Shown here in pieces: positions 2,950-62,715 of a stretch of 64,000 nucleotides of DNA. The translations under genes and the position numbers were made by a program. Source of the stretch: a virus. Lineage: Duplodnaviria > Caudoviricetes. Within the stretch, counting starts at the first letter, position 1. Each line of letters begins with the position of its first letter. Under the pieces are notes generated by a model. That model was not told the origin of the DNA. It saw only the letters and a list, made by a program, of their open reading frames with translations, and ran no database searches. The stretch lies in the IMG/VR virus record IMGVR_UViG_2636415425_000001, positions 47,083 to 111,082 of that record; one strand, 5' to 3'.

Positions 2950-3032
2950 CAGCCAAAAAAAATTGCGCGAATGAGCCCCCGTGCGGTCCGTGCCCCCGCC
3001 GGTTCCCAGACTTTCCGACCCCATACCCCTTG
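2950..3032 (-). other. Probable cos/packaging-initiation region
   Basis: Minus strand GGGGTATGGGGTCGGAAAGTCTGG...GGACCG...CTCATTCGCGCAATTTTTTTT just upstream of terS, resembling the G-rich/T-run tracts near cos in HNH-type cos phages. Confidence 0.55.
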
Positions 3033-3274
3033 GCCGAGCATGGCCGGCCGGCTTGCGGCGGGTTGGCGTGTCGTTAGCGCTGGCGTGCGATAGGCCGAGG
3101 CGCGTAGCCTGGCCGATTAGTGTCAACCCTGCAGGCTACATGCTGGCGCCGCTGGCGCCGCGCCGCGCGCGCGGTAGCCTTCCGCGCTTCTGTCTCGAAT
3201 AGCTGGCGCTAGTGGCGTTGCGCGGTTGACGTCGCGGCCTTGCATCGATCCGCCGAGGCCGAGGCCAGAAATGC

Positions 3275-3304
3275 AAAACCCGCCGAGGCTTCCCGCGGCG
3301 GGTT
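3275..3304 (-). terminator. Rho-independent terminator-like hairpin
   Basis: AACCCGCCG/CGGCGGGTT stem with a T-run on the minus strand. Confidence 0.5.
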
Positions 3305-3477
3305 GGCTGCAGTGACACTGCGCCGAATGCCTGTTCTGAATCATAACTGGAGTCGGACTGTCAAACCCGGTTCCGCTACTCGGCGGTGCATGACGGCGCC
3401 GCGCGGCCTCGGCCTCTCCCTCTTCTGTGATAGCTATTGCTTACGGACTGTTGAAACTCACGGAATAGGGAAACCCA

Positions 3478-3789
3478 ATGACTGCAGCAAAGGCGGATAA
3501 GACGGCGCCGAGGCAAGCCGGCAAAGGCCGCGCCTATGCCTCGGCCGGCGCCGCAATGCGAATCAGCGCGGCCGAATTCATGGCTTGGCAGGAAGAGCTA
3601 CGCCTATCCAATGGCGCCGCAGCTGCAGCGCTATTCATCTCGCCCAATACCGTTACAGCGGTGCGCGCGGAAGGCGGTAGCGCTGAACTGGCGCTGAAGT
3701 GTCGCGCCATCGCCGCCGGCCTTTCGCCAGCGCTACCCATGCAAGAGGCCTTTCGCCTCGGCCGAATTGCCGCGATCCTGCAGGAATAG
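3478..3789 (+). CDS. Small HTH (XRE-like) DNA-binding protein
   Basis: AEFMAWQEELRLSNGAAAAALFISPNTVT helix-turn-helix pattern. Confidence 0.6.
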   Translation: MTAAKADKTAPRQAGKGRAYASAGAAMRISAAEFMAWQEELRLSNGAAAAALFISPNTVTAVRAEGGSAELALKCRAIAAGLSPALPMQEAFRLGRIAAILQE

Positions 3790-3863
3790 AGCCGCAATTC
3801 CCTCTAGTGTGAGTCCGGCCGGGCTAAAGGCTATCTTTTTTCACAGAACAGCGAATTAGGGGA

Positions 3864-3892
3864 TTGACACGCGCCGCGCTTTATAGGCATGT
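3864..3892 (+). promoter_or_regulatory. Putative sigma70 promoter of the small-gene array
   Basis: TTGACA at 3864-3869 upstream of the first motif-A copy; -10 is degenerate. Confidence 0.45.
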
Positions 3893-3936
3893 GCGGTTTG
3901 TGAGGCGCGATTGTGCGCAAATCTAAAGGCCGCGAA

Positions 3937-4110
3937 ATGAACGCTTTCATTTCCTCTTGCATCGCAAATCCGGCTTTGGCCGGTTTCCTCTTTGCTGCGA
4001 TCTATTCCCTTTGCTGGGCTGGCCTAGCTCCCTTCCTGTATGCGCCGGCAAAGCCTCGGCGCCTCATGATCCGGCGCCGCGCGCGCCGTTCCAGTTCGCC
4101 GCGCCGCTAA
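3937..4110 (+). CDS. Small membrane protein
   Basis: Follows motif A; one hydrophobic segment then an Arg-rich tail. Confidence 0.6.
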   Translation: MNAFISSCIANPALAGFLFAAIYSLCWAGLAPFLYAPAKPRRLMIRRRARRSSSPRR

Positions 4111-4161
4111 CCCGGCAAGGCTCAACCCGCGCAATCGTGCGCAAATCGAAAAGGTAAGACA

Positions 4162-4347
4162 GTGACAAACTCAACCGTGAAAAGCCTCTTGCACCATGCG
4201 GCCGCGGCGATCCGGGTTGGAAACCTCACACTCGCATTGCGGCTTGTGTCCAATGCCGAATGCCTGGCCTCGGCGGACGAAACCATTTCCGCGGTGCGCC
4301 TCGGCCATATTCGCACCGCGCGGCTTGCGCTCGCAATCGCGAACTGA
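4162..4347 (+). CDS. Hypothetical protein
   Basis: GTG start after motif A/RBS. Confidence 0.65.
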   Translation: MTNSTVKSLLHHAAAAIRVGNLTLALRLVSNAECLASADETISAVRLGHIRTARLALAIAN

Positions 4348-4360
4348 GGAGCGCGCGACA

Positions 4361-4573
4361 ATGGCAACCGCCACAATCAAAAAGCGCGATCATGTCACCT
4401 ATGTTTGCAGCGCTGGTGTCACCGTTACCGCCATCGTTCGCACCGCGCACCGCGACGGTACCGCTACGGTTGAGGCCCGGCATATGCTGGACTCGGCCGG
4501 CAATATCCGCGGTTGCTATCTCGGTTACCGCTACCGTTTCGACGCCAGCGATCTAACCCGGGTTGAGGCATAA
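4361..4573 (+). CDS. Hypothetical small beta-rich (SH3-like?) protein
   Basis: GAGGAG RBS; MATATIKKRDHVTYV... Confidence 0.65.
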   Translation: MATATIKKRDHVTYVCSAGVTVTAIVRTAHRDGTATVEARHMLDSAGNIRGCYLGYRYRFDASDLTRVEA

Positions 4574-4578
4574 CGCAC

Positions 4579-4818
4579 ATGGCAAAGCCTGATGATTTGA
4601 CCGTGTACGCCTCGGCCGGATATGCCGCGCCGGATTCCACAAATCCGCACCTCTGGAGTAGCGCAACACACATTGCCTATTGCCTCGGCCAATGGTTTCA
4701 CGCAACCGGCCGGCCGGCGCCGCGCGCGGTCCGCATGTCCCGCGGCCTTTCGATCCGCGCAAACGATATGCTGATACGCTGGGATGCTAAAACCGGCGCA
4801 TGCGAGCGTATCAACTAA
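4579..4818 (+). CDS. Hypothetical protein
   Basis: GAGG RBS, tight packing. Confidence 0.65.
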   Translation: MAKPDDLTVYASAGYAAPDSTNPHLWSSATHIAYCLGQWFHATGRPAPRAVRMSRGLSIRANDMLIRWDAKTGACERIN

Positions 4819-4909
4819 CGCGATTTGCAGCCTATGCCGTGCACGTCACGGCATAACCGGCAAACCGCCGAAACCGCGCAATTGTGCGCAAACTGAAAAG
4901 GAAACCGCT

Positions 4910-5014
4910 ATGAAGTATCGCAAGCATGACTCCGACCGCCGGCCGATGGACAAGCGGACTCGGCGCGCCGCGGTGCGCAACGGAAAGCGCTCGTTTCTGA
5001 ATTCGTGCCTCTGA
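4910..5014 (+). CDS. 34-aa basic peptide
   Basis: Motif A + AAGGA RBS; MKYRKHDSDRRPMDKRTRRAAVRNGKRSFLNSCL. Confidence 0.55.
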   Translation: MKYRKHDSDRRPMDKRTRRAAVRNGKRSFLNSCL

Positions 5015-5025
5015 GGGATACGCCA

Positions 5026-5481
5026 ATGCGATGGACGTTTGACCAATGGTTGACGGCATGCGGCGCGGAAATGTCGCTCCAGTTTAATTGGACGCTGGAG
5101 CATTCCGGGTTGCGCGGTTTCGATTGGAGCGCGGCCTATGGCCGAGGCCTCACGGTCCGCGCGGCTTGTGACGCGGCTTACGATCATGTGCAGGAAACTG
5201 CACTAGACGGCGCCGTCTATTTCAATTGCTGCACTGGCAACACGGCGCCGGATTGGTCCGCCTTCCGTTCGCTCGAAATTGGCGGATGCAAAATGGTGAG
5301 CAATTCCGCTGGCGAAAGCTACGTGCACGGGAATCAGGCGCCGGACGATTCCGCTTTTTGGACTGTCTACGCTCGCGAGCATGACGGTTGCGCGCTGGCG
5401 ATTACCGATTGCGGAATCCTCACGGAAACCCACGCGATAGCGGAAACGCTTTCCCGGCTTTCCGGCCTTCCCCTGATTTGA
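5026..5481 (+). CDS. Hypothetical protein
   Basis: GAGGG RBS; Trp/Cys-rich globular sequence. Confidence 0.7.
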   Translation: MRWTFDQWLTACGAEMSLQFNWTLEHSGLRGFDWSAAYGRGLTVRAACDAAYDHVQETALDGAVYFNCCTGNTAPDWSAFRSLEIGGCKMVSNSAGESYVHGNQAPDDSAFWTVYAREHDGCALAITDCGILTETHAIAETLSRLSGLPLI

Positions 5482-5573
5482 CGTTGCGACACTGCGCAGC
5501 ATGTCTGCGCAGCACGGAACGCCAAAGCGGACCAACGCGCGATTGTGCGCAAACTTGAAAAGGACAACGGCCA

Positions 5574-5816
5574 ATGCCTTGGAAACTGGAACTGCAGGAA
5601 ACCCGGCGCGGTTGCCAAATGCTGGAAACGACACCGCGCTATGACGTTCTCTTGAACGGCGCGCGAACCGGCCAGCTGTATTTCAACACGCGCGGTTATG
5701 TCGGATATCTGCCGACGCCGGCCGGCGGAAAGATCGATATCGGAGAGAAGGGAATCACGGCGTTTCGTCGCGAGGTTTCCGCGCTCAACCGGGAAGCTAG
5801 GAACCTGGCCGGCTAA
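5574..5816 (+). CDS. Hypothetical protein
   Basis: Motif A + RBS. Confidence 0.75.
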   Translation: MPWKLELQETRRGCQMLETTPRYDVLLNGARTGQLYFNTRGYVGYLPTPAGGKIDIGEKGITAFRREVSALNREARNLAG

Positions 5817-5854
5817 CCCGCGCGATTGTGCGCAAATTGAAAGGACAGACTACA

Positions 5855-6046
5855 ATGGCACGATATGGCGGCGATCCGCGATGGATCATTACCAAATATC
5901 CGACCAATGACCGCAACGGCCGTTTCATCCCGGTAGGAACGCGCGCGTTCTACTATCCCGCTTCCAAACGCATGTTGACCGGCGCCGAGGCGGAACAGGC
6001 AAGCCGTGACTTTGAGGCCGCGCGCTTTGACGAAAGCATGGGGTAA
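5855..6046 (+). CDS. Hypothetical protein
   Basis: Motif A + RBS; MARYGGDPRWIITKY. Confidence 0.75.
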   Translation: MARYGGDPRWIITKYPTNDRNGRFIPVGTRAFYYPASKRMLTGAEAEQASRDFEAARFDESMG

Positions 6047-6051
6047 CGGAA

Positions 6052-6351
6052 ATGGATTTTGCAGCATTCCAAGCCGCCGCGGCCGAGCTGGATAACCGGA
6101 TGACAACGGCCGGCGCGCGCCTCGGCGCCGTGACAGAAAGCCTTGCGGCCGAGATGGGGATTCCGGCGCGCGGTCCGATGGGATTGACGCCCGATCGAAT
6201 TAAGTTCGATCCGCGATACCGGCTTGCGAAGGCCGCGGCCGATATCGCCTTTTCGGAACTGCGCGCATTCAATGCCCGGTATGCCCGGCGGTTCAAGAAA
6301 GAGATACGCGCCGCGATTGACGCGCGGCGCCGTGCCAAGGCAACGGCCTGA
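6052..6351 (+). CDS. Hypothetical helical protein
   Basis: Tight packing; RGPMGLTPDRIK. Confidence 0.7.
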   Translation: MDFAAFQAAAAELDNRMTTAGARLGAVTESLAAEMGIPARGPMGLTPDRIKFDPRYRLAKAAADIAFSELRAFNARYARRFKKEIRAAIDARRRAKATA

Positions 6352-6415
6352 CCTGGCCTCGGCCTTCCCTCAATTCTCGGCGCGATTGTGCGCAAATCAG
6401 AAAGGACAATGGACC

Positions 6416-7507
6416 ATGCAACAGGTTGATTTGATCGCGGCAAAGGCTGCAAAGGCAACGGAACGGCGCGCGCTCGCAATCGTCGCGTATGACAACGCAA
6501 CAGCGAATCCCGATTGCGCGAACTGGCGCGCGGTTGCCGATTTGCTTAGGCTCGCATTGCCGGCGCCGAAAGCCGGATCCGCCGCGGCCAAGATCCCGGA
6601 CGGCGCGGCCGATCATTGGGCGGACTATGTGATTCCGGCAAGCGCGACCAAACGTCTAGGCAAATCGCCTATTATCGTTGTCACGTTCTCTTGCGGCGCC
6701 GTGGTACGCGCGCCGGCAGTTTCCCTTCCCGGCAAGCCGGTCAATATCGGCCGCGGCTTGCGTGTTGCCTTTGCCTTCTACCGGGCACGGATCGCACGGG
6801 AATTCGGCAAGGCCTCGGCCATTGGTTCCGATTGTGTCGCGGTTCCGGCCATCGTTTCCGTTGCCTGTGACGTTGCCGGCGCCGAGTATTCCGCCGAGGA
6901 ATGCAACGCGCGAACGGCCGAATTCCGCCGCGGCCGTTTCGATCATATCGCGCTTTCGGCCGAGGCCTCGGCCTTGCCGGAAACCGCCGAGGCCGGCGAG
7001 TTGACGCGCGCCGACTTCTACCGCGGCCATTACCTCATTGCCTCGGCCGAGGCCGAGATTTTGGCCGGCGCCAATGAGGATCACGCGGCCGAGCTCGGCG
7101 CGCAGATTGCCGACTATCGGTCGCGTCTCGGCGGTATGGCCTGGCTGGAGATTGAAGCGCGGCGCCGCGCCATCATTCGCGCGGCCGAGGCCGAGGCGAA
7201 AGCCGCGGCAAAGGCCGAGGCCGAGGCCGGCCGGCGCGCCGAGCAAGAGGCCGAGGCCCGCGCAGCTGCAGCCGAGGCCGAGGCGTCGCGGTTGCGGCTT
7301 GTCGCGGACAATTCCGCCAGCGTCGAAACCGCGTCGGCTTCCCTCCCGGATACGGCCGATTCCCTCCCGGTTGCGCCCGCGCCCAAATCGATCGCGCCTA
7401 TCCCGGTTGCGCCTTCCCGCGCCGCGCGCTTCCTGGCCTCGTCATCGCTCGGCGCGCCTCGGCCTTCCCTCCCGGTTGCGCCTTTCTGCGCGATCCGCGC
7501 CAGCTAG
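6416..7507 (+). CDS. Hypothetical protein with Ala/Glu coiled coil and a repeat-derived C-terminal tail
   Basis: Motif A + RBS; the PDTAD/PVAP tail is encoded by motif-B DNA. Confidence 0.7.
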   Translation: MQQVDLIAAKAAKATERRALAIVAYDNATANPDCANWRAVADLLRLALPAPKAGSAAAKIPDGAADHWADYVIPASATKRLGKSPIIVVTFSCGAVVRAPAVSLPGKPVNIGRGLRVAFAFYRARIAREFGKASAIGSDCVAVPAIVSVACDVAGAEYSAEECNARTAEFRRGRFDHIALSAEASALPETAEAGELTRADFYRGHYLIASAEAEILAGANEDHAAELGAQIADYRSRLGGMAWLEIEARRRAIIRAAEAEAKAAAKAEAEAGRRAEQEAEARAAAAEAEASRLRLVADNSASVETASASLPDTADSLPVAPAPKSIAPIPVAPSRAARFLASSSLGAPRPSLPVAPFCAIRAS

Positions 7508-7522
7508 TCGGAGTCGCCAGCA

Positions 7523-7720
7523 ATGCGAGCCTATGGATTCGATATCTTGCCCGATGGCGCAAAGTTTCGCCTGATTGATCGCTGCGAATTCAACAATTGG
7601 GGCGAGCTATCGCCGCGGTTTGATACTCCAGCCGAGGCCGAGGAATACGCGCGCCGCTGCGACGAATTCAAGCGCGGCAAGCGTTCAAGCGTCGAATTGC
7701 GCGCTTGGGAACTGCACTAG
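7523..7720 (+). CDS. Hypothetical protein
   Basis: GGAG RBS; RFDTPAEAEEYA. Confidence 0.65.
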   Translation: MRAYGFDILPDGAKFRLIDRCEFNNWGELSPRFDTPAEAEEYARRCDEFKRGKRSSVELRAWELH

Positions 7721-7790
7721 GCCGCGGCGCGCCTCGGCCTCACGGAATGCAACACGCGCGATTGTGCGCAAACGGAAAGGAAAACAGACC

Positions 7791-8204
7791 ATGCGGAAGC
7801 CGAATCCCAACAAAGAGAAGGCCGCGCAGCTGGCGCGCCAGATTGCCAACATGACGGAAGAGCAGAAGGCGATTTGGCTGCAGCGCGCGCCGATCCTCAC
7901 CGCGGACGCGCGGCCGATATCCGGGAAAAATCACATGCTGGCGGCGATGCAATGCGAAGGCGCAACCATGCTCGGCGGCTTCAATCAATGGCTTTCCGCC
8001 GGTCGCGTGGTGCGCAAAGGCGAGTCCGCAATCTACATTTTCGCGCCGTCCGGCCGGCGCGCGACGGCCGAGACCTCGGCGGCGCCGAGCGCGGAAGGCG
8101 CCGCGGCCGAGGCCGTGGCGGAGTCCGTGCGGTTTATCCTGGTCCCGGTTTTCGACGTCTCGCAAACCGAGGAAAAGCCGGCCGAGCAAGCCGCCGCGGC
8201 CTAG
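7791..8204 (+). CDS. ArdC N-terminal-like ssDNA-binding domain protein (DUF1738-like)
   Basis: SGKNHML...GGFNQWLSAGRVVRKGESAIYIFAP...PVFDVSQTE; lacks the ArdC metallopeptidase domain. Confidence 0.8.
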   Translation: MRKPNPNKEKAAQLARQIANMTEEQKAIWLQRAPILTADARPISGKNHMLAAMQCEGATMLGGFNQWLSAGRVVRKGESAIYIFAPSGRRATAETSAAPSAEGAAAEAVAESVRFILVPVFDVSQTEEKPAEQAAAA

Positions 8205-8289
8205 TCCCGGGTACGGCCGATTTCCCCAATCCCTCGGCTACGGCCGATTTTCTCGGCGCAATTGTGCGCAAACCAAAGGAGCTAACGAC

Positions 8290-8559
8290 ATGCCGAAATT
8301 GATTCTCGATTGCCACCCCGCAACCGTCCAGGGCGATTGCATCTTGACGTCCATCATGCAAGCCGGCCCCGTGGCGCGCCTCGTTGTCGATATCGCGCGC
8401 GCCGCGGACGCCGAAAGGGAATTCGCGGATTACTGCAAGAGCATTGAGGCAACCGGCAAGCCGGCGAGCGTTTCAATGCGGATCGCCCGCGCCGATCGCT
8501 CCCCGCCTGGCTTCAAGAAACTGAAGGGCGCGGCCGGCTTTCACAGTGTCAATTGCTGA
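8290..8559 (+). CDS. Hypothetical protein
   Basis: Motifs B+A and AAGGAG RBS. Confidence 0.7.
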   Translation: MPKLILDCHPATVQGDCILTSIMQAGPVARLVVDIARAADAEREFADYCKSIEATGKPASVSMRIARADRSPPGFKKLKGAAGFHSVNC

Positions 8560-8569
8560 GGGCGCCGAA

Positions 8570-8764
8570 ATGACTTTCCGCGCCTATGACTTTCCTGCGG
8601 CCGTCATCCGGATTTATGCGGATGGCAGCTGCAGGGAGTTTCCGAAATGGTGCCTAATGATAAGCGTCGAACGCTCGCGCGCCTATGTCGCCAGTGCACT
8701 GCGCGAGTTGCGCAGCTATCGGCGGCGCCTCGCCGCTGAACCGCTTCGCCCCGCCGCCGCCTGA
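8570..8764 (+). CDS. Hypothetical protein
   Basis: GAGGG RBS. Confidence 0.55.
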   Translation: MTFRAYDFPAAVIRIYADGSCREFPKWCLMISVERSRAYVASALRELRSYRRRLAAEPLRPAAA

Positions 8765-8792
8765 TTTCCCATCACAGAACAAAGGAACCGTT

Positions 8793-9200
8793 ATGCATCT
8801 CACCTTGCCCCGCTCGCCGCTCGCCGCGCTCGTTAACGAGGCCTCAAAGTATCGATGGCGCATCCGCTACGCGCTGCAGCGCTACGGCGTAGCCTGGCGC
8901 TACGCTCGCCAGCGCTCAACCCGCGATGACGGATTGACGCTGCTTTTCGACGCCGAGCATATCGCCGGGATTTACGGCCTCGCCTGCTTGTCCGAGGAAT
9001 CCGTTTTGGATCGCGCGCGCGACCTATACGGCGACATTCCCGGTCTTGAGCGATGGGCGGCGGACGCTTGCGCGCGCGTCAACTCGAAACATGGCGGCGG
9101 CGATGGCGAAATGATCGGCGCGGCGGAAGATTGGGCGCTTGAACTGATGGCCGAATACGCCGCGCACGATGGCGTGACGCTGGCAGAACTCGCCGAGTAA
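8793..9200 (+). CDS. Hypothetical protein
   Basis: AAAGGA RBS. Confidence 0.7.
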   Translation: MHLTLPRSPLAALVNEASKYRWRIRYALQRYGVAWRYARQRSTRDDGLTLLFDAEHIAGIYGLACLSEESVLDRARDLYGDIPGLERWAADACARVNSKHGGGDGEMIGAAEDWALELMAEYAAHDGVTLAELAE

Positions 9201-9337
9201 CCCCCGGCGCCGGCTGATTCCCCAGCCGGCGCGACACCTCCCGACTACGGCCGATTTTGCGCGGTGGATGACGCGCGGACCTGGCCGCAGCCGCTCAACC
9301 ATCCGCGCAATAGTGCGCAAAGCGAAAGGACGCTCCC

Positions 9338-9571
9338 ATGAGAACGATTAAGCCCGCGACACGCGACAATGCAATCCAACTCAACAACGCAATAGCGCTG
9401 ATGAAGAAGGCCCGCGGCTGGTTGCGCGGCGCCGATAGCCCGAAAGCGTTGGAAGCGCTGCAAGCGGCGCTGAAGAGCGCCGAGGGCGCAAAGCGACACA
9501 TGCAGCACAGACTCAACCGGGCCAATCCGCCTGGCCTTCGCGCGCCCGGCGTCGATCACATGCCGGGATAG
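9338..9571 (+). CDS. Hypothetical helical protein
   Basis: Motif A + RBS. Confidence 0.7.
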   Translation: MRTIKPATRDNAIQLNNAIALMKKARGWLRGADSPKALEALQAALKSAEGAKRHMQHRLNRANPPGLRAPGVDHMPG

Positions 9572-9636
9572 CCTCCGGGCTACGGCTGATTTTCCACCCC
9601 TCGCATACGGCTAATTTTCACAAGGAGATCACCATC

Positions 9637-10542
9637 ATGAGCACAATCACGATTTGGACTTGCACCACGGAAGGCGACAACTGCGGGACCGAAACCACGG
9701 TGCACGCAACCCAAGGCGAGGCCGTGGACTACGTGCGCGCAGCGCTCCGCGATATTCTCAAAAACCGCAGACCCGAGCGCCTGGCAGCGATCGCGGCGGC
9801 GACCGCCGAGAACATCAAAGAACTCTGGGAAGATGCGGTTGACGGACCTTGCATCATCGAAGAGCAGTCCGTGACGCTTCCGCCCTTTGCGGTCGCGATC
9901 TACGAAACCCGCTACGGCGACGAAACGCGCCTCTACGCCAACACGGACGACGCGCAGACCTGGCGCCGCGAGATCGCCGCCGAGAACTGGGCGGCGCGGA
10001 TGGACGAGGAACGGCCGGCCGATGCCGACGAGACCGCAGACGCCTATTTCCATCACGTCGGCGAGGCGCGCGGCGACTTCTTCCGGGTCGAAGAGCTGGA
10101 GATGATCGGCGGCACAGTCCCGGTTGCGCCTGCCCAGGACTGGCGCCAGATCGCCCGCGACTTGGCCGGCGCGCTCGATGCATGCACCCATCAGATTGGC
10201 CAGATGCGCGGCATGTTCGACGACGAGGACGGCACGATTGCGGAAGCAGTTTCCGACGCTGACGCCGCCTCCGAAGCCTACCGCCGAGCCGCCGCCGGCC
10301 TCCCGGCTGCGCCCGCGCTGCAGCCCATCGGTCAAGATGACCGCGCCTGCTCGGAAGGCTGGGGCCTCTTCGAGAACAGCGACACAGGCCGGCTTGAGAT
10401 TCAGGCCGACGCCGAGTCCTCAATCTTTGTGCGTGACGGCGTGAGCCACGACGACGAGGCCGAGGCATTCGTAAAAGCAAAGGCCGCCGAGGGCAGCGAG
10501 TACCACGCCGCGGCGCTCGCCCGTGTCGGTACGGCCCAATAG
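9637..10542 (+). CDS. Acidic, apparently multi-module hypothetical protein
   Basis: Motif B pair + AAGGAG RBS; Asp/Glu-rich. Confidence 0.75.
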   Translation: MSTITIWTCTTEGDNCGTETTVHATQGEAVDYVRAALRDILKNRRPERLAAIAAATAENIKELWEDAVDGPCIIEEQSVTLPPFAVAIYETRYGDETRLYANTDDAQTWRREIAAENWAARMDEERPADADETADAYFHHVGEARGDFFRVEELEMIGGTVPVAPAQDWRQIARDLAGALDACTHQIGQMRGMFDDEDGTIAEAVSDADAASEAYRRAAAGLPAAPALQPIGQDDRACSEGWGLFENSDTGRLEIQADAESSIFVRDGVSHDDEAEAFVKAKAAEGSEYHAAALARVGTAQ

Positions 10543-10601
10543 GCCCGGCTACGATCGATTTTCCACCCCCGAGCTACGGCCGATTTTGAGGAGCAGCACA
10601 C

Positions 10602-10793
10602 ATGCACTTGAGCGAGACGACAAACGGAAAGCTGGCGGAGGTCTCAACCCAGATTGAGGAGCTAATCCGCTGGGCTGAAGCGGACGCCGAGCACGCCCGC
10701 GAAAACGACGCGCGTCAAACCGCGCGAGATGATCGGAGCCGCGCCGCGAAGCTCCGCAAGGCGCTCGCCCTGGTGCGAGCGTGCGAGCGATAG
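10602..10793 (+). CDS. Small helical protein
   Basis: Motif B pair + GAGGAG RBS. Confidence 0.65.
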   Translation: MHLSETTNGKLAEVSTQIEELIRWAEADAEHARENDARQTARDDRSRAAKLRKALALVRACER

Positions 10794-10870
10794 CCACTTG
10801 ACACCGCCGGCAATCTGACTCATTGAACAACCCCCGCGCGATTGTGCGCAAATTGAAAGGATGAAGACAC

Positions 10871-13234
10871 ATGCAGCATTCCGCCACCTATTCGCCCGAT
10901 GATAACAAGCTGCGCCTTTACCCGGCGCACCGGCTCGACGCCGAGGAGCACGCGCGCGTAAAGGCGCACGGCTTCAAATGGGCGCCGCGTCAAGAATTGT
11001 TCGTTGCGCCGATGTGGACGCCAGAACGCGAAGACCTGCTGATTGAGATGTGCGGCGAGATCGGCGACGAGGACAAGAGCCTGGTAGAGCGCGCCGAGGA
11101 TCGCGCCGACCGTTTCGACGAATACAGCGACAAGCGGCTGTCGGAAGCTAACCGCGCGCGCGAGGCCGTGGACCAGATCGCGGAGCGGTTCGCGATGGGG
11201 CAGCCGATTTTGGTCGGCCATCATTCCGAGAAGAGCGCACGCAAGGACAAGGAGCGGATGGACTCCGGCATGCGCAAGGCAATCAAGCTGTGGGACACTT
11301 CCAAATATTGGACGGCCCGCGCCGAGGGCGCCATCGCCCACGCGAAATACAAGGAACTGCCGGCGGTGCGTCATCGCCGCATCAAGGGCATTGAGTCCGA
11401 TAAGCGGAAGCTGGAGCGCCAGCAGGCCGAGACCGAAAGGCAGCTGAAAGCCTGGCAGATCGTCGCCGGCATCACGGACCCGGAGAAGCAGCGCGCGGCC
11501 GGTTTGGCCGTGGCCAACACCGGCGGTTATTGGTCGATGTCGTTTCCGCTGGCCGACTATCCGCGCGACCCGCCGGCCTCGCAGTATGAGGGACCGATGG
11601 GCCTTTGGTCGGCGATTGAAGGGAACGTCATCACCGCCGCCCAGGCCGCCGCTATCGCAATTCCTGGCCTGGAGCGCGGCGGGCCTCGGCGGGAGCGCTG
11701 GATTGCGCACTATGACAACCGGCTGGCCTATGAACGGGCGATGTTGGCCGAGCAGATCGGCGCGGAGGCCACTGCCAACCCGCTTGCAGACCGTTTCGCC
11801 TTCGCCGTTGGTGGTCAGGTGCAAACCCGCCGCAGCGACGATTGGCTTACGATTGTGAAGGTCAGCAAGGGCGCTAACGGCTCGGTTTCCAGCATTCAAA
11901 CCGCAGCCCCGTCAGGATCGCGCGGGCGCGGCGTTTACTGGAAGGTCGAAAGCGTCCGCGACTATCGCGCGCCGACCGCCGAGAACGTCGCCGCGGCGAA
12001 GGCCGCCACGAAGCTCCCGCCGATTTGCAACTATCCCGGCGAGGGATTCCGCGAAATGACTGAAGCCGAATGGAAGGCGCGCCGGCAGTTCTCGGATTTC
12101 TCCTATATCGGCACGGTGAAGGCGACCGAGACCCAAGGCGCGCACCGCGTCCGCCAGATGCCGACGCCCGGCGAGTTCTGGAAGGCGCAAAAGGTTTTCA
12201 TCACGGATGCAAAGCGCGTCGATCCGCCCAAGATCGCGCCGGCACCAGAGCCGACCGAACCGGCCGAATTTGTGGCTGAGTATGTCGCGCCGCCCGCGGT
12301 CGATCTTGACGCCATGCTGGCCACGGTCGGCGAAATCGTGGGCGCGCCGGTCGAGGCCGCGGCCCAGGACGAGCCCGAGGCCGCGCCGGCGCTGGCCCCG
12401 GATGCGCCCGCGGAAGAACCGCGACGCCTCGGCGACGCCAAGGCGGAGGCGCAGCGCATCGGCGCGGAGATCATCACCGGACTCGGCCAATTCCGTGTTG
12501 GCCTCGGCCAGCACGTTACCGACTGGTGCGACGACGAGGCGACCGCCTGGCGGCAGTTCTGCGGACTGGCTGGCGTGCCGTTTGAGGCCGAGGCCGTGCC
12601 GGCTGATCTGCGGCCGCGCGTTCTCGCCCCGGTCCCGGATACGGCCGATTTGCCGGCGCCGACCGCGGCGGACAGTTTCGAGGCCATGCGGGCGATGTTG
12701 AAGGGCGGCGGCGTGCAAGTCGTCGTCGCGCCTCAACTCTTCCCGACGTCGGACGAACTCGCCGCGGACGTTGCGGAGGCCGCGGACATCCGGCCCGGGC
12801 AACGCATCTTGGAGCCGAGCGCCGGAACCGGCGCCCTGATCGAGGCTGCGCGCAACTGCGCCAATGATCTGCAGGTGGTGGCGGTCGAGATCAACACGAA
12901 GCTGTGCCATGCATTGGCGGACCGCTTCACCGGCATGCAAATGACCGTCATCAATGCGGACTTTCTCGACATGGCCGGCGTCACGGACAAGTTTGATCGG
13001 ATCATCATGAATCCGCCTTTCGAGCGCGGCGCCGATATCAAGCATATCGAGAACGCGCGGCGGTTTCTGAAGCCTAACGGCCGCCTGGTCGCCATCTGTG
13101 CCGACGGCCCGCGCCAGCGCGCGAAGCTCGAACCGATCGCGGTGGAGTATCGCGCCCTGCCCGCGGGATCCTTCAAGGCTGCTGGCACCATGGTCAACAC
13201 GGCGTTGGTCGTGATCGACGGGCCGCCGGGATAG
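10871..13234 (+). CDS. DUF3560-domain protein fused to an amino-methyltransferase
   Basis: ATYSPDDNKLRLY, GQPILVGHHSE (DUF3560); C-terminal QLFPT, ILEPSAGTG, IIMNPPF. Confidence 0.88.
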   Translation: MQHSATYSPDDNKLRLYPAHRLDAEEHARVKAHGFKWAPRQELFVAPMWTPEREDLLIEMCGEIGDEDKSLVERAEDRADRFDEYSDKRLSEANRAREAVDQIAERFAMGQPILVGHHSEKSARKDKERMDSGMRKAIKLWDTSKYWTARAEGAIAHAKYKELPAVRHRRIKGIESDKRKLERQQAETERQLKAWQIVAGITDPEKQRAAGLAVANTGGYWSMSFPLADYPRDPPASQYEGPMGLWSAIEGNVITAAQAAAIAIPGLERGGPRRERWIAHYDNRLAYERAMLAEQIGAEATANPLADRFAFAVGGQVQTRRSDDWLTIVKVSKGANGSVSSIQTAAPSGSRGRGVYWKVESVRDYRAPTAENVAAAKAATKLPPICNYPGEGFREMTEAEWKARRQFSDFSYIGTVKATETQGAHRVRQMPTPGEFWKAQKVFITDAKRVDPPKIAPAPEPTEPAEFVAEYVAPPAVDLDAMLATVGEIVGAPVEAAAQDEPEAAPALAPDAPAEEPRRLGDAKAEAQRIGAEIITGLGQFRVGLGQHVTDWCDDEATAWRQFCGLAGVPFEAEAVPADLRPRVLAPVPDTADLPAPTAADSFEAMRAMLKGGGVQVVVAPQLFPTSDELAADVAEAADIRPGQRILEPSAGTGALIEAARNCANDLQVVAVEINTKLCHALADRFTGMQMTVINADFLDMAGVTDKFDRIIMNPPFERGADIKHIENARRFLKPNGRLVAICADGPRQRAKLEPIAVEYRALPAGSFKAAGTMVNTALVVIDGPPG

Positions 13235-13309
13235 TCCCGGCTGCGCCCTCCCGCTTACGACCGATTTCCAAACCCTCCCGGCTACGATCGATTTTGAAAG
13301 GAACACAGC

Positions 13310-13804
13310 ATGCCTGACCGTTTCGAATACACTTCGGAAGAGCGGATGTTGCTCGCCCGCCTGGCCCAAGGCCGGCAAACCGACCGGGATTGCATCCCTG
13401 AGCGCGTGCTCGTCAATCGAGGCATGGCGCGCCGGGTCGATCCCGGAGAGATCGAGATCACACCAGCCGGTCGCGACGAGCTCGCACGGATCGCCTCGAG
13501 CGCTGCTTTCTCCGGTCCAATCGACGGCGCACGCGCCGGCATCATCGAGGCGCTCGGCGGCGCGTTCGCAACGCCTCCGGCTTCGCCACCGCCTGGCCGG
13601 CAACTGACCGACGATGAGAAGGCCTTCATCGCTCGCATGGCGCCGCACGTCATGGCCGGCAAGACCCTCGAGGAAGCCGGGGCGGCCGTCCTCCAGGATG
13701 ATGAACGCTTGTGGCTGACCGCCATGGAGGATTCGGACGTCGGCCGCGCGATCCGCGGCGAGCTCGCCAAGGCGACATACGTCGCAGCGCGCGCGAAGCC
13801 ATAG
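13310..13804 (+). CDS. Hypothetical protein (possible N-terminal winged helix)
   Basis: Motif B + RBS; EITPAGR. Confidence 0.7.
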   Translation: MPDRFEYTSEERMLLARLAQGRQTDRDCIPERVLVNRGMARRVDPGEIEITPAGRDELARIASSAAFSGPIDGARAGIIEALGGAFATPPASPPPGRQLTDDEKAFIARMAPHVMAGKTLEEAGAAVLQDDERLWLTAMEDSDVGRAIRGELAKATYVAARAKP

Positions 13805-13877
13805 GCGCGGCTGCCCCGACTACGACTGATTTCCCATCACCCCCTCGGCTACGGCCGATTTGAAAGGAGAATTACCC

Positions 13878-14249
13878 ATGCTCGTCACCGTCAAGGCCGG
13901 CGCCAAGGTGGAAGGCCACACCTTCAGCCAGGACTCGAACCAAAACTTTGGGCGGGAGAAAGCCGAAGGCCTGATCAAAGATGGCCGCGCAAGGCCCGCG
14001 GCGTTCGACGCCGAGGGAATCTGCCGGATCAACACGCGGTTCGAAGCATGGCTCAACGAACATGGCGCGCTCGCGATCGGGTCTTGCGGCGATGCCTTTC
14101 TGCATCTCTCGCCGGAATTTCCGTTGGCTTACTTGCCCGAGGCACTGCAAGCCTATCAAGCGGGGCACCACCACGGCATGAGTTACGGCCGCAGCAAACT
14201 GCAGAACGAGCTTCTGAACTTGCTCGGGGCCGAGCCATGCAAGATATGA
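13878..14249 (+). CDS. Hypothetical protein
   Basis: Motif B pair + AAAGGAG RBS. Confidence 0.7.
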   Translation: MLVTVKAGAKVEGHTFSQDSNQNFGREKAEGLIKDGRARPAAFDAEGICRINTRFEAWLNEHGALAIGSCGDAFLHLSPEFPLAYLPEALQAYQAGHHHGMSYGRSKLQNELLNLLGAEPCKI

Positions 14250-14524
14250 CGGGGGAAGAGACAGTCACCGCGGCCGGCTACAGGGTTGCCACTCGCGCCG
14301 AGTTCGATGCCGCCACCGACGTGCCCGCGGGCGTGCGCCTGGTGGCCGATCGCCTCTTCAAACGCTGGGGCGGCGACTTCGTTGTTTACGATCCGGCCGG
14401 CGGTGATGACGGCTGGCTGCTGATCGACGACGACCGCGAGCAGATCATAGGCGAGACCGTGGAACACCTCGGACGGCTCAAACCTGAGCCGACTGCGCCG
14501 CCGGCACAAGGCTCGCTGTTTTGA
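14246..14524 (+). CDS. Hypothetical protein
   Basis: ATGA overlap; ends QGSLF (clamp-binding-like motif). Confidence 0.6.
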   Translation: MTGEETVTAAGYRVATRAEFDAATDVPAGVRLVADRLFKRWGGDFVVYDPAGGDDGWLLIDDDREQIIGETVEHLGRLKPEPTAPPAQGSLF

Positions 14525-14560
14525 CACCCGGATACGATCGATTTTGAAAGGAGACCGAGC

Positions 14561-14734
14561 ATGCCGCGGAACTGGATCGTGCGCGAGCGCCACCCATTCG
14601 ATGATGGATACTGGGCGCGCTATGACGGCAAACGCCGCCCCAACAAGTCATTGACCGAGAAACGTGAGGGCTGGGAGGCTTGCGACCGCGAGATTGCCGA
14701 AGAAGCCCACGACGCTGAGGAGGCTGTGCTATGA
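14561..14734 (+). CDS. 57-aa protein not in the ORF track
   Basis: Motif B + AAAGGAG; MPRNWIVRERHPFDDGYWARYDGKRRPNKSLTEKREGWEACDREIAEEAHDAEEAVL. Confidence 0.65.
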   Translation: MPRNWIVRERHPFDDGYWARYDGKRRPNKSLTEKREGWEACDREIAEEAHDAEEAVL

Positions 14735-15099
14735 GGCAGGTCCGCCGCGTCCCCGCCGATTGGCAGCACCCTCGCAATTCCTGGGGTCGATATACGCCGC
14801 TCCTTGAGTCCGCCCCGGATGCACCCGCGCCCGATCTTTCCCGCTGCATGCCGGCATGGCCGGAGGCGGAGCGCACCCACTGGCAGTTGTACGAGACCAC
14901 CAGCGCCGGCACGCCGGTTTCGCCGCCCTGCCCGTCGCCCGAGGCCTTGGCCAAATGGCTTGCCGACCACCATGTGGAGGCCGCACCAGGTTTCACCGGA
15001 ACGGAGGCGCAATGGCTCGGCGCCATCAAGCGCGGCGGCGTCATTCCGCCGGTGATGACCGTCGGCAAGCAGCAGGTCTCGCCGCTGGATTACACCTGA
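14731..15099 (+). CDS. Phage hypothetical protein
   Basis: RRVPADWQHP...WQLYETTSAGTPVSP. Confidence 0.75.
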   Translation: MRQVRRVPADWQHPRNSWGRYTPLLESAPDAPAPDLSRCMPAWPEAERTHWQLYETTSAGTPVSPPCPSPEALAKWLADHHVEAAPGFTGTEAQWLGAIKRGGVIPPVMTVGKQQVSPLDYT

Positions 15100-15193
15100 T
15101 CGGCCGGGACTCCCGGCTACGATCGATTTTGTGCTACCCCCTCGGCTACGGCCGATTCCGGGCGATTGTGCCCAACCGGAAAGGAACTCTCAG

Positions 15194-15517
15194 ATGTCGC
15201 CCCCCAGATTTGTTCACCGCAAGATCTCGGCCGAGGACTTCAAGGCCGAGTTGGCGAAGCAGGGCATGTCGGTGCCGGCGTTCGCCCGTGTCTGGTGCCA
15301 GAACCTTTCGACCGTCACGAAATGGGCCAACGGCGGGAACGATATCCCGACCTGGGTGCCGATCGCGCTGACCATGATGACGCTGCCAAACGCTCACGGG
15401 ACCGCCCGTATGGCGGCGGCGGCGATGATCGAAGAAGATCGGCTGCATCCCGAGCTCGGAAAATTCCCGTACCAGAAGCTTCGGCAGATGCCGGCGGACG
15501 ACGAGATCGAGGAATAG
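15194..15517 (+). CDS. XRE-like HTH regulator, last gene of the array
   Basis: FKAELAKQGMSVPAFARVWCQNLSTVTKWANGGNDIP. Confidence 0.7.
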   Translation: MSPPRFVHRKISAEDFKAELAKQGMSVPAFARVWCQNLSTVTKWANGGNDIPTWVPIALTMMTLPNAHGTARMAAAAMIEEDRLHPELGKFPYQKLRQMPADDEIEE

Positions 15518-15523
15518 TCCCGG

Positions 15524-15739
15524 CTACGATCGATTTTGCGTGCCCCGGCTGCGCCTTTTCTTCGCCGCGTGCCGTTTCTTGGGCGGCGCTCGCTTCGCCG
15601 CTGGCGCCGGCGGCGCGTCCTTCGCTGCGGCCGCGGCGTCGAGGGCATCGAGCTCCCGCTTCTGCGCCTGCATCCGTTCCCACCTGGCTTCGCGTTGAGC
15701 GCGCAGCGCGTCGGCGCGCGGTGACGGCTCCCTGCTCAT
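15524..15739 (-). CDS. Small basic hypothetical protein
   Basis: Coupled to the upstream ORF. Confidence 0.45.
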   Translation of the reverse strand: MSREPSPRADALRAQREARWERMQAQKRELDALDAAAAAKDAPPAPAAKRAPPKKRHAAKKRRSRGTQNRS

Positions 15740-15924
15740 GACGGCGACCTTTGCCAGAACCAGCGGCGCCGGCGCAACAGCACGATTGCCTCTTGCGATC
15801 GGCCAGCAACGCTGATCGGTCGCCAACCGTCCGCAATTCGGCTGTTTAACTCTCGCCGCAACCATCCCTGCGACTGCGTGGAGTAAATGCTTTGGAGATC
15901 GTATTCGTAGCGATAGAGCAGCAT
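15736..15924 (-). CDS. Hypothetical protein
   Basis: AGGAG RBS; MLLYRYEYD. Confidence 0.5.
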   Translation of the reverse strand: MLLYRYEYDLQSIYSTQSQGWLRRELNSRIADGWRPISVAGRSQEAIVLLRRRRWFWQRSPS

Positions 15925-16212: not shown

Positions 16213-16557
16213 CTACGATCGCATCCGGTCCGCTCGAGCCTGCAATCCCTTGCGGACGTTGTGCTCGGCGCATTTGCAGGCGCCGTTGTTCAGGTCTAGG
16301 GCGCGGGATCGATCGTCCCTGATCTCGACGACATGATCGGCGTACATCTGGTCGCCGTTGGCCCGGCTGCGCTCGCAGCGGACGCCATCCTCGACATGCT
16401 CGCAGCGCCAGCCGGCGCGCTTCTTGACCTGCAGCGCCCACCGCTGGTGCTCGGCAGTCTGGTAGTGCGGGTCCGCGCGCTTCTCCGGAGGCTTCACCTT
16501 CCTGGTGTCGAGGGTCGGAACGCGCGGGCCCAGCGTGGGAATTCGAGACCGCTTCAT
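16213..16557 (-). CDS. HNH endonuclease (gp74-like packaging cofactor)
   Basis: KRAGWRCE...ADHVVEI...LDLNNGACKCAEHN. Confidence 0.85.
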   Translation of the reverse strand: MKRSRIPTLGPRVPTLDTRKVKPPEKRADPHYQTAEHQRWALQVKKRAGWRCEHVEDGVRCERSRANGDQMYADHVVEIRDDRSRALDLNNGACKCAEHNVRKGLQARADRMRS

Positions 16558-16742
16558 TTCTTTTCCCCGCGCCGCGGCCCGAACATCTTCCGGCCCATAG
16601 ATCGCACCATTTCGCGCTGGTCCCATGTCATCACGTCGTTGTCGACATCGAGCAGGAGGAGACCATACTCACGCCAAACCCGCTGTTTCGTTTCCAGCGG
16701 CGTCTCGCGGCTATTGGGGGCAAACCGTCCGAGGGACATCAA
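16554..16742 (-). CDS. Hypothetical protein
   Basis: Coupled to HNH. Confidence 0.6.
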   Translation of the reverse strand: MMSLGRFAPNSRETPLETKQRVWREYGLLLLDVDNDVMTWDQREMVRSMGRKMFGPRRGEKK

Positions 16743-17740: not shown

Positions 17741-18169
17741 CTATCCGCGCGCGGGATAGGTCTCGACGTATTCGCGGATCGCCTGCGCGAAAGCCTTTCC
17801 GGCCTCGACGGTTGCCTGGTCGCTCAGGTCGAGATCCGTCATCGTTCCGCGAGCGCGGTCGATGCTTATCGTGCCGTTGACGCGCCGCGGGCATTGGCCA
17901 GCCTCGAGCGCCTGGTAATCCTCCGGACCAATCGATCGATCGTGACTGAAGGCGAACGCCCGCCACATTGGGCAGTCGCCCCAACCGCCGACACAGCCCG
18001 GGCATTGCGCGTCAGCGAAGGCTGCGACCCTTGCGTGGTCGGGACAAAATCCGACCTCGCTGTCGACTCCGCCGGTTCGATGCTCCCAACCAGGTGGGAG
18101 GACAATCTCAGTGCGATGGTTTTTGCCGCAAAAGCAGCAGTCGACTGAGATTTCAAGCTTCGTGGTCAA
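17741..18169 (-). CDS. Cys-rich hypothetical protein
   Basis: CCFC, FCPDH, CPGC; TTG start overlapping the dnaB stop. Confidence 0.6.
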   Translation of the reverse strand: MTTKLEISVDCCFCGKNHRTEIVLPPGWEHRTGGVDSEVGFCPDHARVAAFADAQCPGCVGGWGDCPMWRAFAFSHDRSIGPEDYQALEAGQCPRRVNGTISIDRARGTMTDLDLSDQATVEAGKAFAQAIREYVETYPARG

Positions 18170-39290: not shown

Positions 39291-39367
<77 letters not shown>

Positions 39368-62665: not shown

Positions 62666-62710
62666 CTTTTAATCATGGGGTCGAGGGTTCGAGTCCCTCC
62701 GCGCTCACCA
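62666..62710 (+). other. attR: 3' half of tRNA-Lys(UUU)
   Basis: CTTTTAATCATGGGGTCGAGGGTTCGAGTCCCTCCGCGCTCACCA (anticodon loop to CCA); no 5' half upstream. Confidence 0.9.
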
Positions 62711-62715
62711 AACAA

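Follow-up and report, generated by a model that had tools for sequence, protein, structure and literature searches.

We have analysed a 64,000-nt stretch of viral DNA (the window; IMG/VR record IMGVR_UViG_2636415425_000001, positions 47,083 to 111,082), which corresponds to G000:C1:78661-142660 in an 8.27-Mb genome of 64% GC. The window carries an array of 26 plus-strand open reading frames (ORFs), called at 3478-15517, in which three repeat families, A, B and C, recur. The array is a conserved, self-contained, repeat-punctuated module adjoining the packaging genes. In the reading that we prefer, with a probability of about 0.45, it is an accessory region of a 110-kb temperate phage, probably an early-expressed array for counter-defence, with post-transcriptional control via the hairpin formed by A. 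That the module is first-entering, early and anti-defence is plausible. Most distinctive is the combination of a putative covarying RNA element, A, before nearly every translational unit with an Aca-like helix-turn-helix (HTH) protein and a conserved arginine-rich micro-protein. A preliminary description, made from the letters of the window, had counted about 25 small plus-strand genes opposite in direction to both flanks, which agrees with the 26 called here, 18 of them shorter than 130 amino acids, between two minus-strand flanks. These genes are grouped into approximately 16 standardised translational units, each of 1-3 small genes.

Hairpin A. Each A unit consists of GCGC, a 6-nt loop (RAUNGU), GCGC and AA, followed after 3-7 nt by a GAAAGG-type Shine-Dalgarno sequence and, 6-9 nt further on, by the start codon. 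The window contains 10 copies of the exact motif, GCGCRATNGTGCGCAA, at 3905-10836, none of them on the minus strand, and the 8.27-Mb genome contains 11, the eleventh being a chance copy within coding sequence that lacks a Shine-Dalgarno sequence. The 16-nt cores of the ten canonical hairpins (span 3905-10851) begin at 3905, 4129, 4876, 5537, 5820, 6380, 7756, 8256, 9305 and 10836. A variant hairpin, GGGC-GATTGT-GCCC, absent from the earlier list of copies, is located at 15160-15175 on the plus strand and precedes g26, the last gene of the array. A covariance model built from 84 units scores 11 sites of the window, and no more, at 27.6-36.2 bits; the next best match reaches 19.4 bits. Every one of the 11 A units has coding-strand orientation and is approximately 20 nt upstream of a start codon. 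No Rfam family matches hairpin A.

Covariation within the stem was scored in a sample of 84 units from eight arrays, one of them in a metagenomic phage of 54% GC. The search pattern fixed the two inner stem pairs only, and returned 86 hits in the eight arrays and 1 on the opposite strands; two of the 86 hits, lacking a Shine-Dalgarno sequence, were dropped. At the free stem pair, 66 distinct rows have CG and 7 have GC, and none is unpaired. At the outermost pair, GC is present in 68, UG in 2, GU in 1 and other combinations in 2 distinct rows. The covariation score is 0.121 versus 0.015 +/- 0.010 in shuffled alignments (reached by 0 of 500), and the signal is lost on sliding the partner column. 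Every array has the GC state of the free pair at the hairpin preceding g26, and the 54%-GC relative has it at two additional sites. As these two further sites are not orthologous to the g26 site, the GC state reflects at least three independent covariation events. The signal derives from one informative pair and the outer wobble, because the pattern fixed the two inner pairs. On this thin evidence, covariation favours a base-paired single strand, that is mRNA, over a plain duplex site.

The same sequence could serve as a DNA operator of the stoperator type, at which a phage repressor (g1, g26 or another protein) would block transcription of the array in the lysogen, the hairpin then being a by-product of the dyad. 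The half-site centres of GCGC-N6-GCGC are 10 bp apart, the sequence is nearly invariant, including the loop, and two possible HTH proteins bracket the array. The sites are also intergenic and in a single orientation, like the 13-bp stoperators contrasted with the SAS repeats in the relevant section of PMC3203893, the authors of which judged the inverted repeats of the ESAS elements in Cluster K mycobacteriophages to be DNA sites. Conversely, pairing-preserving CG to GC double changes occurred at at least three independent sites with no row breaking the pair, which argues against an operator in DNA because a protein reading GCGC does not need a joint change of both half-sites. The outer pair admits G-U and U-G wobbles, the 3-7 nt spacing to the Shine-Dalgarno sequence is tight, and two units are located downstream of promoter-like sites, that is, in a 5' untranslated region (UTR). 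Stoperators of Cluster A mycobacteriophages are asymmetric repressor sites spread genome-wide over early and late operons, whereas A and B are confined to the 12-kb array, a stray B match at 51063 excepted, and do not extend over the other 98 kb of the prophage. We regard a DNA operator of the stoperator type as unlikely.

Promoter-like sequences are associated with A at two positions. Candidate promoter P1 contains a -35-like TTGACA hexamer at 3864-3869 (plus strand), about 35 nt before the first A hairpin, and candidate promoter P2 contains the same hexamer at 10798-10803 (plus strand), upstream of the A hairpin of g20; both positions are conserved in five arrays. A strict sigma-70 scan did not call P1. 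TTGACA was noticed upstream of A at these two units alone and at none of the others, indicating that A is not itself a promoter. A hexamer approximately 35 nt upstream, as at 3864 and 10798, would set the hairpin at the 5' end of the transcript. Two other roles were tried and rejected. Pairing of A or B with 16S rRNA produced 7-nt matches only, which is chance level, and A as the promoter of a phage RNA polymerase was dropped as there is no PF00940 match in the genome, a weak result since the control genomes are silent too. The longest ORFs of the prophage do not exceed 1275 amino acids, and a search for shared operators detected no meaningful 11-mers common to the array promoters and the rest of the window.

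Conservation of the signals was investigated in related phages. An exact scan of IMG/VR for motif A identified seven further arrays, and a search with the g26 family identified 11 loci, four of them new. The gene for the large terminase subunit, TerL, is to the left of the array and on the opposite strand in 7/7 relatives covering that side, and an HNH endonuclease gene is at the far end in 6/7; in the seventh (L070) HNH was not detected in the fetched stretch. TerL identity among the relatives is 44-93%. Eleven of the 26 window genes are without a counterpart in at least three of four close relatives, and the motifs remain. Looking for related prophages with the same motifs around different genes had been put forward as a check in the preliminary description, and this is what is observed, with hairpin A fronting unrelated genes in different arrays. 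A and B are kept in 11/11 viral records that encode a g26 homologue, and are conserved from Bradyrhizobium prophages of 64% GC to a 94-kb metagenomic phage contig with overlapping ends and 54% GC (G406). The earlier suggestion that the block possesses its own, locus-specific signals is borne out by this distribution.

Beyond the phage records, arrays of A with a Shine-Dalgarno sequence were detected in three Bradyrhizobium records only among 185,579 species, each represented by one genome. Single matches to A plus a Shine-Dalgarno sequence in other phyla were rejected, as they represent coding sequence of a conserved ABC-ATPase motif. The B-B-A unit occurs in no cultured phage and no PLSDB plasmid, and a pattern scan of 400 genomes across the family produced background hits only. 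Bradyrhizobium elkanii WSM2783 (L088) and Rhodopseudomonas palustris BisB18 (L105) each contain a single canonical A with a Shine-Dalgarno sequence outside any array, preceding a gene of 74 amino acids that begins MKIEIKKIGNSDGLLLP and appears AbrB/MazE-like by eye.

The mosaic arrays, in which 11 of 26 genes lack counterparts as described above, raise the alternative that the repeats are mainly junctions for cassette exchange, with recombination between A or B copies shuffling small genes and regulation being secondary, as in the PeSL elements of T4-type phages. One motif indeed precedes unrelated genes, and B supplies a stop codon to whatever gene is upstream. Homology-breakpoint clusters in the window (n = 47) lie within 30 nt of A or B in 47% of cases versus 18% at random (0 of 2000 permutations). 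By inspection, though, breakpoints occur at 13/17 junctions with a motif versus 8/9 without. Because motif-free junctions have breakpoints as often, the signal corresponds to ordinary gene-boundary mosaicism, and there is no specific sign that the repeats drive cassette exchange. Exchange would in addition leave the conserved loop, the fixed Shine-Dalgarno distance and the stem covariation unexplained, and as the principal role of the repeats it is quite improbable. The hyperplastic regions of T4-type phages nevertheless resemble the array in having repeated regulatory units around small ORFans in a hypervariable, presumably early region of mosaic content, as described in sections of PMC2839356 and PMC4122927. 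In PeSL cassettes each repeat has an early promoter together with a terminator-like stem-loop, and the end-points of exchange are in the repeats. They differ from the array in that A and B contain no promoter, and that breakpoints are found alike at junctions with and without a motif.

Motif B. B is a stop-associated sequence, (TAG/TAA)-N-CCC..TACGRYCGATTT, starting at or right after the stop codon of the upstream gene. Its form is TAG-N-CCCGGC-TACGRYCGATTT in the high-GC arrays and TAA-CCCC-N4-5-TACGRCTGATT in the 54%-GC array. The core, CTACGRYCGATTT, has 16 matches in the window with at most one mismatch versus 0.22 expected, and 0 of 100 shuffles reach 16. Fifteen of these are at 8211-15536 on the plus strand, their 13-nt cores beginning at 8211, 8238, 9245, 9580, 10549, 10574, 12639, 13255, 13282, 13820, 13849, 14532, 15117, 15146 and 15524, and the sixteenth is at 51063. 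An additional copy at 7351 is inside g11, and the copy at 12639 is inside g20. Most B units are directly behind a stop codon, B often furnishing the TAG or TAA of the upstream gene itself, and five tandem pairs are present with a separation of 25-29 bp. In the right half of the array, B directly abuts the Shine-Dalgarno sequence in place of A. The zones and the locus specificity that had been ascribed to A and B hold, the only strays being the chance copy of A in the genome and the B match at 51063. Folding is limited to a second type of B (B2, CCCTCGGCTACGGCCGATTT), whose 5-bp stem closes a UACG loop (-9 kcal/mol) ahead of a U run. Over all copies the mean z-score is -0.32, on which ground a common RNA structure for B was rejected; B is therefore a sequence signal and not a fold. 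We guess that B insulates, processes or factor-dependently terminates the transcript between units.

Motif C. C (GCCTCGGCC/GGCCGAGGC) is present in 28 copies in the window, 27 of them at 3093-12594 and densest at 3.1-8.1 kb, and in 625 copies in the genome; no other 5-kb stretch of the 8.27 Mb has five or more. Both strands and all three reading frames contain copies. Of the 11 loci, five have at least 18 copies within the 10 kb preceding the g26 homologue and six have at most one. The C family of the preliminary description is real and clustered at the locus, but it differs from A and B in occurring on both strands and in all frames and in being near absent from about half of the related arrays. 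A Chi-like function was also tried: C orientation flips at about 3.3-3.4 kb, but the leading-strand bias of its 8-mer core in the host is 0.51, and this lack of host strand bias, together with the near absence of C from about half of the related arrays, led to its rejection. We propose that C may be a lineage-specific passenger or add-on, outside the core system and dispensable in relatives. Both C and B touch coding sequence in g11: the middle of the protein is an (AE)n repeat composed of C motifs, and at its 3' end (7337-7500) the C-terminus is made up of three copies of TCCCTCCCGGTTGCGCC (peptide SLPVAP) and one B-like unit. Repeat DNA thus appears to have been taken up into the g11 coding sequence.

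Candidate regulators. g26 (15194-15517, plus strand; 107 amino acids) is the last gene of the array and, by model, an XRE-type HTH protein. Its 62 homologues are all annotated as hypothetical and have no Pfam domain. The AlphaFold model has a pLDDT of 87.9, and its best Foldseek matches in the PDB are the HigA2 C-domain, Aca1 (TM score by target 0.64), Aca2, restriction-modification controller (C-) proteins and HipB; a profile of the family against PDB sequences detected nothing relevant. In 11/11 viral loci with a g26 homologue, A hairpins are upstream on the same strand and a GGGC..GCCC-type hairpin is directly before g26. The array opens with g1 (3478-3789, plus strand; 103 amino acids), which may be an HTH regulator and is present in 7/8 compared arrays. 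Alignment of g1 with the g26 family by hhalign over the HTH stretch has a probability of 42% and an E-value of 2.6e-4, BLASTP between g1 and g26 is not significant, and g1 may share the HTH of g26. Structure prediction followed by Foldseek, recommended in the preliminary description, therefore succeeded in part, providing an XRE-type HTH for g26 and an unusable model for g1 (AlphaFold pLDDT 50). The third candidate, g6 (4910-5014, plus strand), encodes an arginine-rich micro-protein of 34 amino acids that is always directly behind an A hairpin. It is kept in 8/8 fully fetched arrays, is single copy in the genome, and has substitutions mainly at third codon positions once the frame is corrected. 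No Pfam family matches g6.

The closest mechanistic precedent is RNA control by Aca1 and Aca2. As described in sections of PMC13551039, the two HTH proteins recognise a conserved 5' UTR hairpin in acr-aca operons, the end of which is about 20 nt from the start codon, and binding blocks ribosome access; neighbouring counter-defence operons can also come under Aca control. Here, similarly, a small HTH gene, g26, ends an operon of small unknown genes, inverted-repeat hairpins that covary end about 20 nt before the start codon, near the ribosome binding site in the 5' UTR, an early burst followed by shut-off would be expected, and Aca1 and Aca2 are among the XRE folds that the g26 model matches. 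The differences are that approximately 11 hairpins are distributed over 12 kb, nearly one per unit, in contrast to one per operon in the Aca systems described there; that the array contains no known acr gene and g26 belongs to no Aca family by sequence; and that hairpin A has no Rfam family and the stop-associated B has no Aca counterpart.

Likeness is also evident to the SAS and ESAS repeats of Cluster K mycobacteriophages, which the corresponding section of PMC3203893 describes as short, asymmetric, one-orientation repeats limited to the non-structural part of the genome. They are situated a few nucleotides before starts with a strong ATG link, are kept before different gene families and are absent from the host genome, and the upstream stop is sometimes within the repeat. 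The 13-bp SAS motif, GGGATAGGAGCCC, contains the Shine-Dalgarno sequence and is 3-7 bp before the start, whereas A is upstream of the Shine-Dalgarno sequence. For the ESAS inverted repeats that section offers no RNA-pairing support, in contrast to A, and the host phylum and motif sequences differ. A is thus an analogue of SAS/ESAS and not a member. The array as a whole combines likeness to known Aca-type RNA control, SAS/ESAS and PeSL.

The conservation of g6 raises a different possibility, that A is a nut-like site and that g6 binds the hairpins in the manner in which lambda N binds boxB, allowing polymerase to pass weak terminators of the B2 type. g6 is arginine-rich, present in all eight arrays and subject to purifying selection, A combines a short GC stem with a conserved loop, and B2 units, with a 5-bp UACG-tetraloop hairpin and a U run at -9 kcal/mol, are terminator-like; we take A and g6 to resemble boxB and N in these respects. 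On the other side, lambda requires one nut site per operon and 11 A units are present here, no boxA-like element was seen in the array, and g6 is too short for NusA- and polymerase-binding regions and matches no Pfam family. Terminator-like sites in the array are also not above chance (23 versus 15.7 +/- 4.5). A hairpin and an arginine-rich peptide of 34 amino acids are what the array offers towards the boxA, boxB and N protein of lambda. Antitermination through A is the most improbable of the explanations considered.

Array cargo. The genes were described initially as mostly unrecognisable, and 24 of the 26 have no recognisable domain in Pfam, PHROGs and NCBIfam searches. The same searches found neither ssb nor psiB in the array proteins, and ESM Atlas provided no usable lead for g18 or g11. 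Substitutions relative to four relatives total 684, 595 and 1915 at codon positions 1, 2 and 3, an excess at the third position; in this count g6 and g23 were entered one base off frame, and their excess appears at 'position 2'. The two recognisable genes are predicted to encode anti-restriction-type proteins, so that the cargo would include at least two, an ArdC-N single-stranded-DNA-binding domain and a DUF3560/N6-amino-methyltransferase, and no known acr. g13 (7791-8204, plus strand; 137 amino acids) matches PF08401 (E 2.6e-6; 28.1 bits versus a cutoff of 22.6) at positions 8-102 and phrog_7245, annotated as anti-restriction. It contains the ArdC N-terminal domain only and no C-terminal HExxH metalloprotease domain, and is thus an ArdC-N-only protein and not a full ArdC. 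g20 (10871-13234, plus strand; 787 amino acids) combines an N-terminal DUF3560 (PF12083, E 1e-33) with a C-terminal class-I amino-methyltransferase that matches methyltransferase families and has an NPPF motif, read from the translation.

g20 matches at least 5000 plasmid records; among the matches listed, 3944 are typed as conjugative, and 15 cover at least 80% of the protein at about 50% identity and are conjugative-plasmid genes. The homologue on pAOVO01 (Acidovorax sp. JS42, MOBF) is in a same-strand block with ssb, DUF932, a C5 methyltransferase and radC; no other array protein matches that 20-kb region of pAOVO01, the g20 homologue being the sole one in common. The B unit at 12639-12651 is in the linker of g20, between DUF3560 and the methyltransferase domain, and is present in all relatives. 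As some plasmids annotate DUF3560 and the methyltransferase as separate genes, this linker unit suggests that g20 was born by fusion across a former intergenic B unit. Elsewhere in the array, g22 (13878-14249) and the g23 frame (14048-14524) overlap by about 200 nt and relatives have homologues for the g23 frame only; the overlap may be a recent cassette junction or a frameshift.

The style of the array genes was compared for 25 array genes and 31 other window genes. Mean GC content at third codon positions (GC3) is 0.73 in the array and 0.82 in the others. A 5-mer Shine-Dalgarno core precedes 17/25 array genes versus 12/31, and the stop codon is TAG or TAA in 16/25 versus 8/31. ATG is the start codon in 24/25 array genes.

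Prophage setting. The prophage is 110.5 kb in length and is bounded by a 46-bp exact repeat at a tRNA-Lys gene, identified by repeat search and tRNA scan. attL is at G000:C1:30842-30887, the 3' end of the tRNA-Lys gene, and attR is at 62666-62711 of the window, with a tyrosine-type integrase gene (weak match; PF00589, E 4.4e-5) just inside it at 61230-62561 on the plus strand. The left flank of the array, which is on the minus strand, comprises a TerS-like gene at 2441-2956 (phrog_309 and phrog_12540, small subunit) and TerL at 559-2241 (Pfam TerL_ATPase and TerL_nuclease; phrog_9, E 1.5e-112). These two genes begin the packaging and structural operon, the structural genes leaving the window leftwards on the minus strand. 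The right flank, also on the minus strand, has a 113-amino-acid ORF at 15524-15865, the HNH endonuclease gene at 16213-16626 (phrog_589, E 3e-12), a gene of 303 amino acids and a DnaB helicase gene at 18166-19737. Minus-strand order is therefore DnaB, the 303-amino-acid gene, HNH, the plus-strand array, TerS-like and TerL. The preliminary description had reckoned with an independent element having its own att sites. As the array is inside the tRNA-Lys-bounded prophage, between terminase and HNH, it is an internal part of the phage and not such an element.

The likeliest cos site is in the 520-bp non-coding region at 2957-3477, which contains conserved GC-rich blocks in an alignment of five relatives. 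At the HNH-side junction the genes are convergent, with stops 7 bp apart and a terminator-like hairpin. Non-coding room is thus available on the TerS side only, and cos is most likely between 2957 and about 3280. HNH genes usually adjoin cos and the terminase genes, according to the portion of PMC3592412 dealing with them; here HNH (16213-16626) and TerS (2441-2956) are split by the 12.4-kb array, as they are in six relatives, and the HK97-type adjacency of HNH, cos and terminase is not observed. Just upstream of TerS, a minus-strand promoter-like site, TTGACA-N16-GATTCA (TTGACA at 3359-3364, GATTCA at 3337-3342; conserved in seven relatives), is followed after approximately 30 nt by a strong minus-strand intrinsic terminator hairpin at 3279-3306 (-35.3 kcal/mol, z -3.15). 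The site as a whole (3279-3366) has the appearance of a late promoter-terminator pair in need of an antiterminator, a layout that we take to be reminiscent of the lambda late promoter and the terminator before its packaging genes. In lambda, the end opposite terS is packaged last and ejected first. With cos located as above, the array would by analogy be the end opposite terS, would enter first and would be transcribed inward. Early timing and anti-defence activity of the array are likewise what we infer. Entry of lambda-like phage DNA is fast, so any positional advantage is also presumptive. The nearest phages among terminase relatives have a TerL 55% identical, and their record ends are uninformative on packaging type.

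A position at a plastic genome end is also compatible with a moron or lysogenic-conversion region expressed from the prophage, serving superinfection exclusion or host fitness, for which the cos side is simply a permissive site. The array is hypervariable, its GC3 (0.73) is lower than in the remainder (0.82), it has its own promoter-like sites, 24 of its 26 genes are of unknown function, and the minus-strand terminator and promoter-like unit divides it from the late operon. An ArdC-N protein and an orphan methyltransferase are, by contrast, typical of establishment and not of conversion. Position and orientation are conserved in seven relatives, the 54%-GC phage included, which speaks for more than a tolerated insertion site, and an HTH gene at the operon end with a hairpin in its 5' UTR fits control by burst and shut-off. 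A conversion region is, in our estimate, very unlikely.

In the mechanism that we prefer, post-transcriptional control of a counter-defence array, the array, which lies between the HNH and terminase genes at the usual location of cos, would be transcribed by host RNA polymerase. Two or three promoters of sigma-70-like type would be used, namely P1 (3864), P2 (10798) and one upstream of g1. A would be an operator in mRNA and, as an inverted repeat with half-sites one helical turn apart, possibly in DNA too. By binding A, a phage-encoded regulator would curb translation throughout the array once an initial burst is over, with g26, the Aca-like HTH protein at the array end, as prime candidate and g6 as second. 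B would close each unit and, as a guess, insulate or process the transcript between units.

Several observations weigh against this mechanism. The A stem is just 4 bp, two of its pairs are invariant since the search pattern fixed them, and many of the seven GC rows are orthologous, so that the independent events are perhaps as few as three. The GCGC-N6-GCGC inverted repeat, with half-sites one helical turn apart, suits a dimeric DNA-binding protein equally. The Foldseek matches of g26 have probabilities of 0.9-1.0 and weak E-values of 0.06-0.9, no Pfam family at E up to 1 and no Aca family matches it, and on the model g26 is an XRE-like HTH protein and not a demonstrated Aca. g26 and g6 are no more than candidate readers of A, and the role of B is a guess. 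For the methyltransferase domain of g20, the nearest NCBIfam families are rRNA adenine methyltransferases, far below cut-off, so that a DNA substrate of g20 is presumptive. The lower GC3 of the array (0.73 versus 0.82) does not suggest codon adaptation for fast expression. Lastly, the label 'counter-defence' depends on two genes of 26.

A broader form of the same mechanism would make the array a phage 'leading region', in which the last-packaged, first-ejected 12 kb are an establishment module of approximately 16 units in one hairpin-A regulon, read by g26 or g6. It would deliver a timed burst of many counter-defence proteins, with g26 binding RNA and DNA, or g6 acting instead, and with B insulating or processing the units. 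This form is doubtful. Plasmid leading regions, as characterised in sections of PMC11541004, group small genes, most of them unknown, in islands of a single direction that include orphan methyltransferases and anti-restriction genes. The array resembles them in having same-direction small genes, an orphan methyltransferase and ArdC-N on presumably first-entering DNA, and in the plasmid homologues of g20 at about 50% identity, one of which is beside ssb on a MOBF plasmid. Phage DNA, unlike plasmid DNA, is double-stranded on entry and therefore has no oriT, T-strand or Frpo-type single-strand promoters. The array is in a tRNA-integrated prophage between terminase and HNH, with no relaxase or oriT context, and has no ssb or psiB; only g20 matched the compared plasmid region and no PLSDB plasmid has the motifs. 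The preliminary description had proposed a phage counterpart of a plasmid leading region, a comparison that stands for two anti-restriction-type domains of 26 genes and falls short in that g20 is the only gene common to the one plasmid region compared and no plasmid with the motifs was found.

In T7 and T5, anti-restriction and takeover genes are at the first-entering end and are transcribed inward, and stepwise entry makes their position decisive. The phage analysed here differs in being temperate and apparently of the cos and HNH type, with no terminal repeat seen. Were post-transcriptional control through A correct, each phage would contribute approximately two dozen candidates for establishment or counter-defence, differing between relatives. 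A and B, marking each unit, would then serve to find more cargo genes in metagenomic data. Searches of the literature and of phage and plasmid records found no earlier case of an Aca-like RNA operator multiplied over a whole array, of which this would be the first. The leading-region form, if true, would extend the single-site RNA control of Aca1 and Aca2 to a multi-site regulon and provide a tailed-phage counterpart of the plasmid leading region. This raises the question of whether temperate cos phages place establishment genes on the first-entering end, as conjugative plasmids do. Even without first entry, A and B are well-defined conserved cis elements.

Other features of the prophage and its host were also observed. 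Approximately 31 tRNA genes of the prophage form one minus-strand cluster at G000:C1:34855-46100, left of the window, and tRNA-Pro and tRNA-Met genes are within the window at 24189-24271 (minus strand) and 39291-39367 (plus strand); no prophage tRNA has a suppressor anticodon. The replication region contains two more DNA methyltransferase genes at 20860-22179 and 25311-27494, both on the minus strand (phrog_67 and phrog_116), as well as a DNA polymerase clamp-like gene at 27722-28834 (phrog_947), so that the phage has at least three methyltransferase domains in all. In the host, the 8-mer CGGGCAGG is the most strand-skewed frequent word, with 0.77 of its 624 copies on the leading strand as defined by GC skew, and is a candidate KOPS- or Chi-like polar motif.

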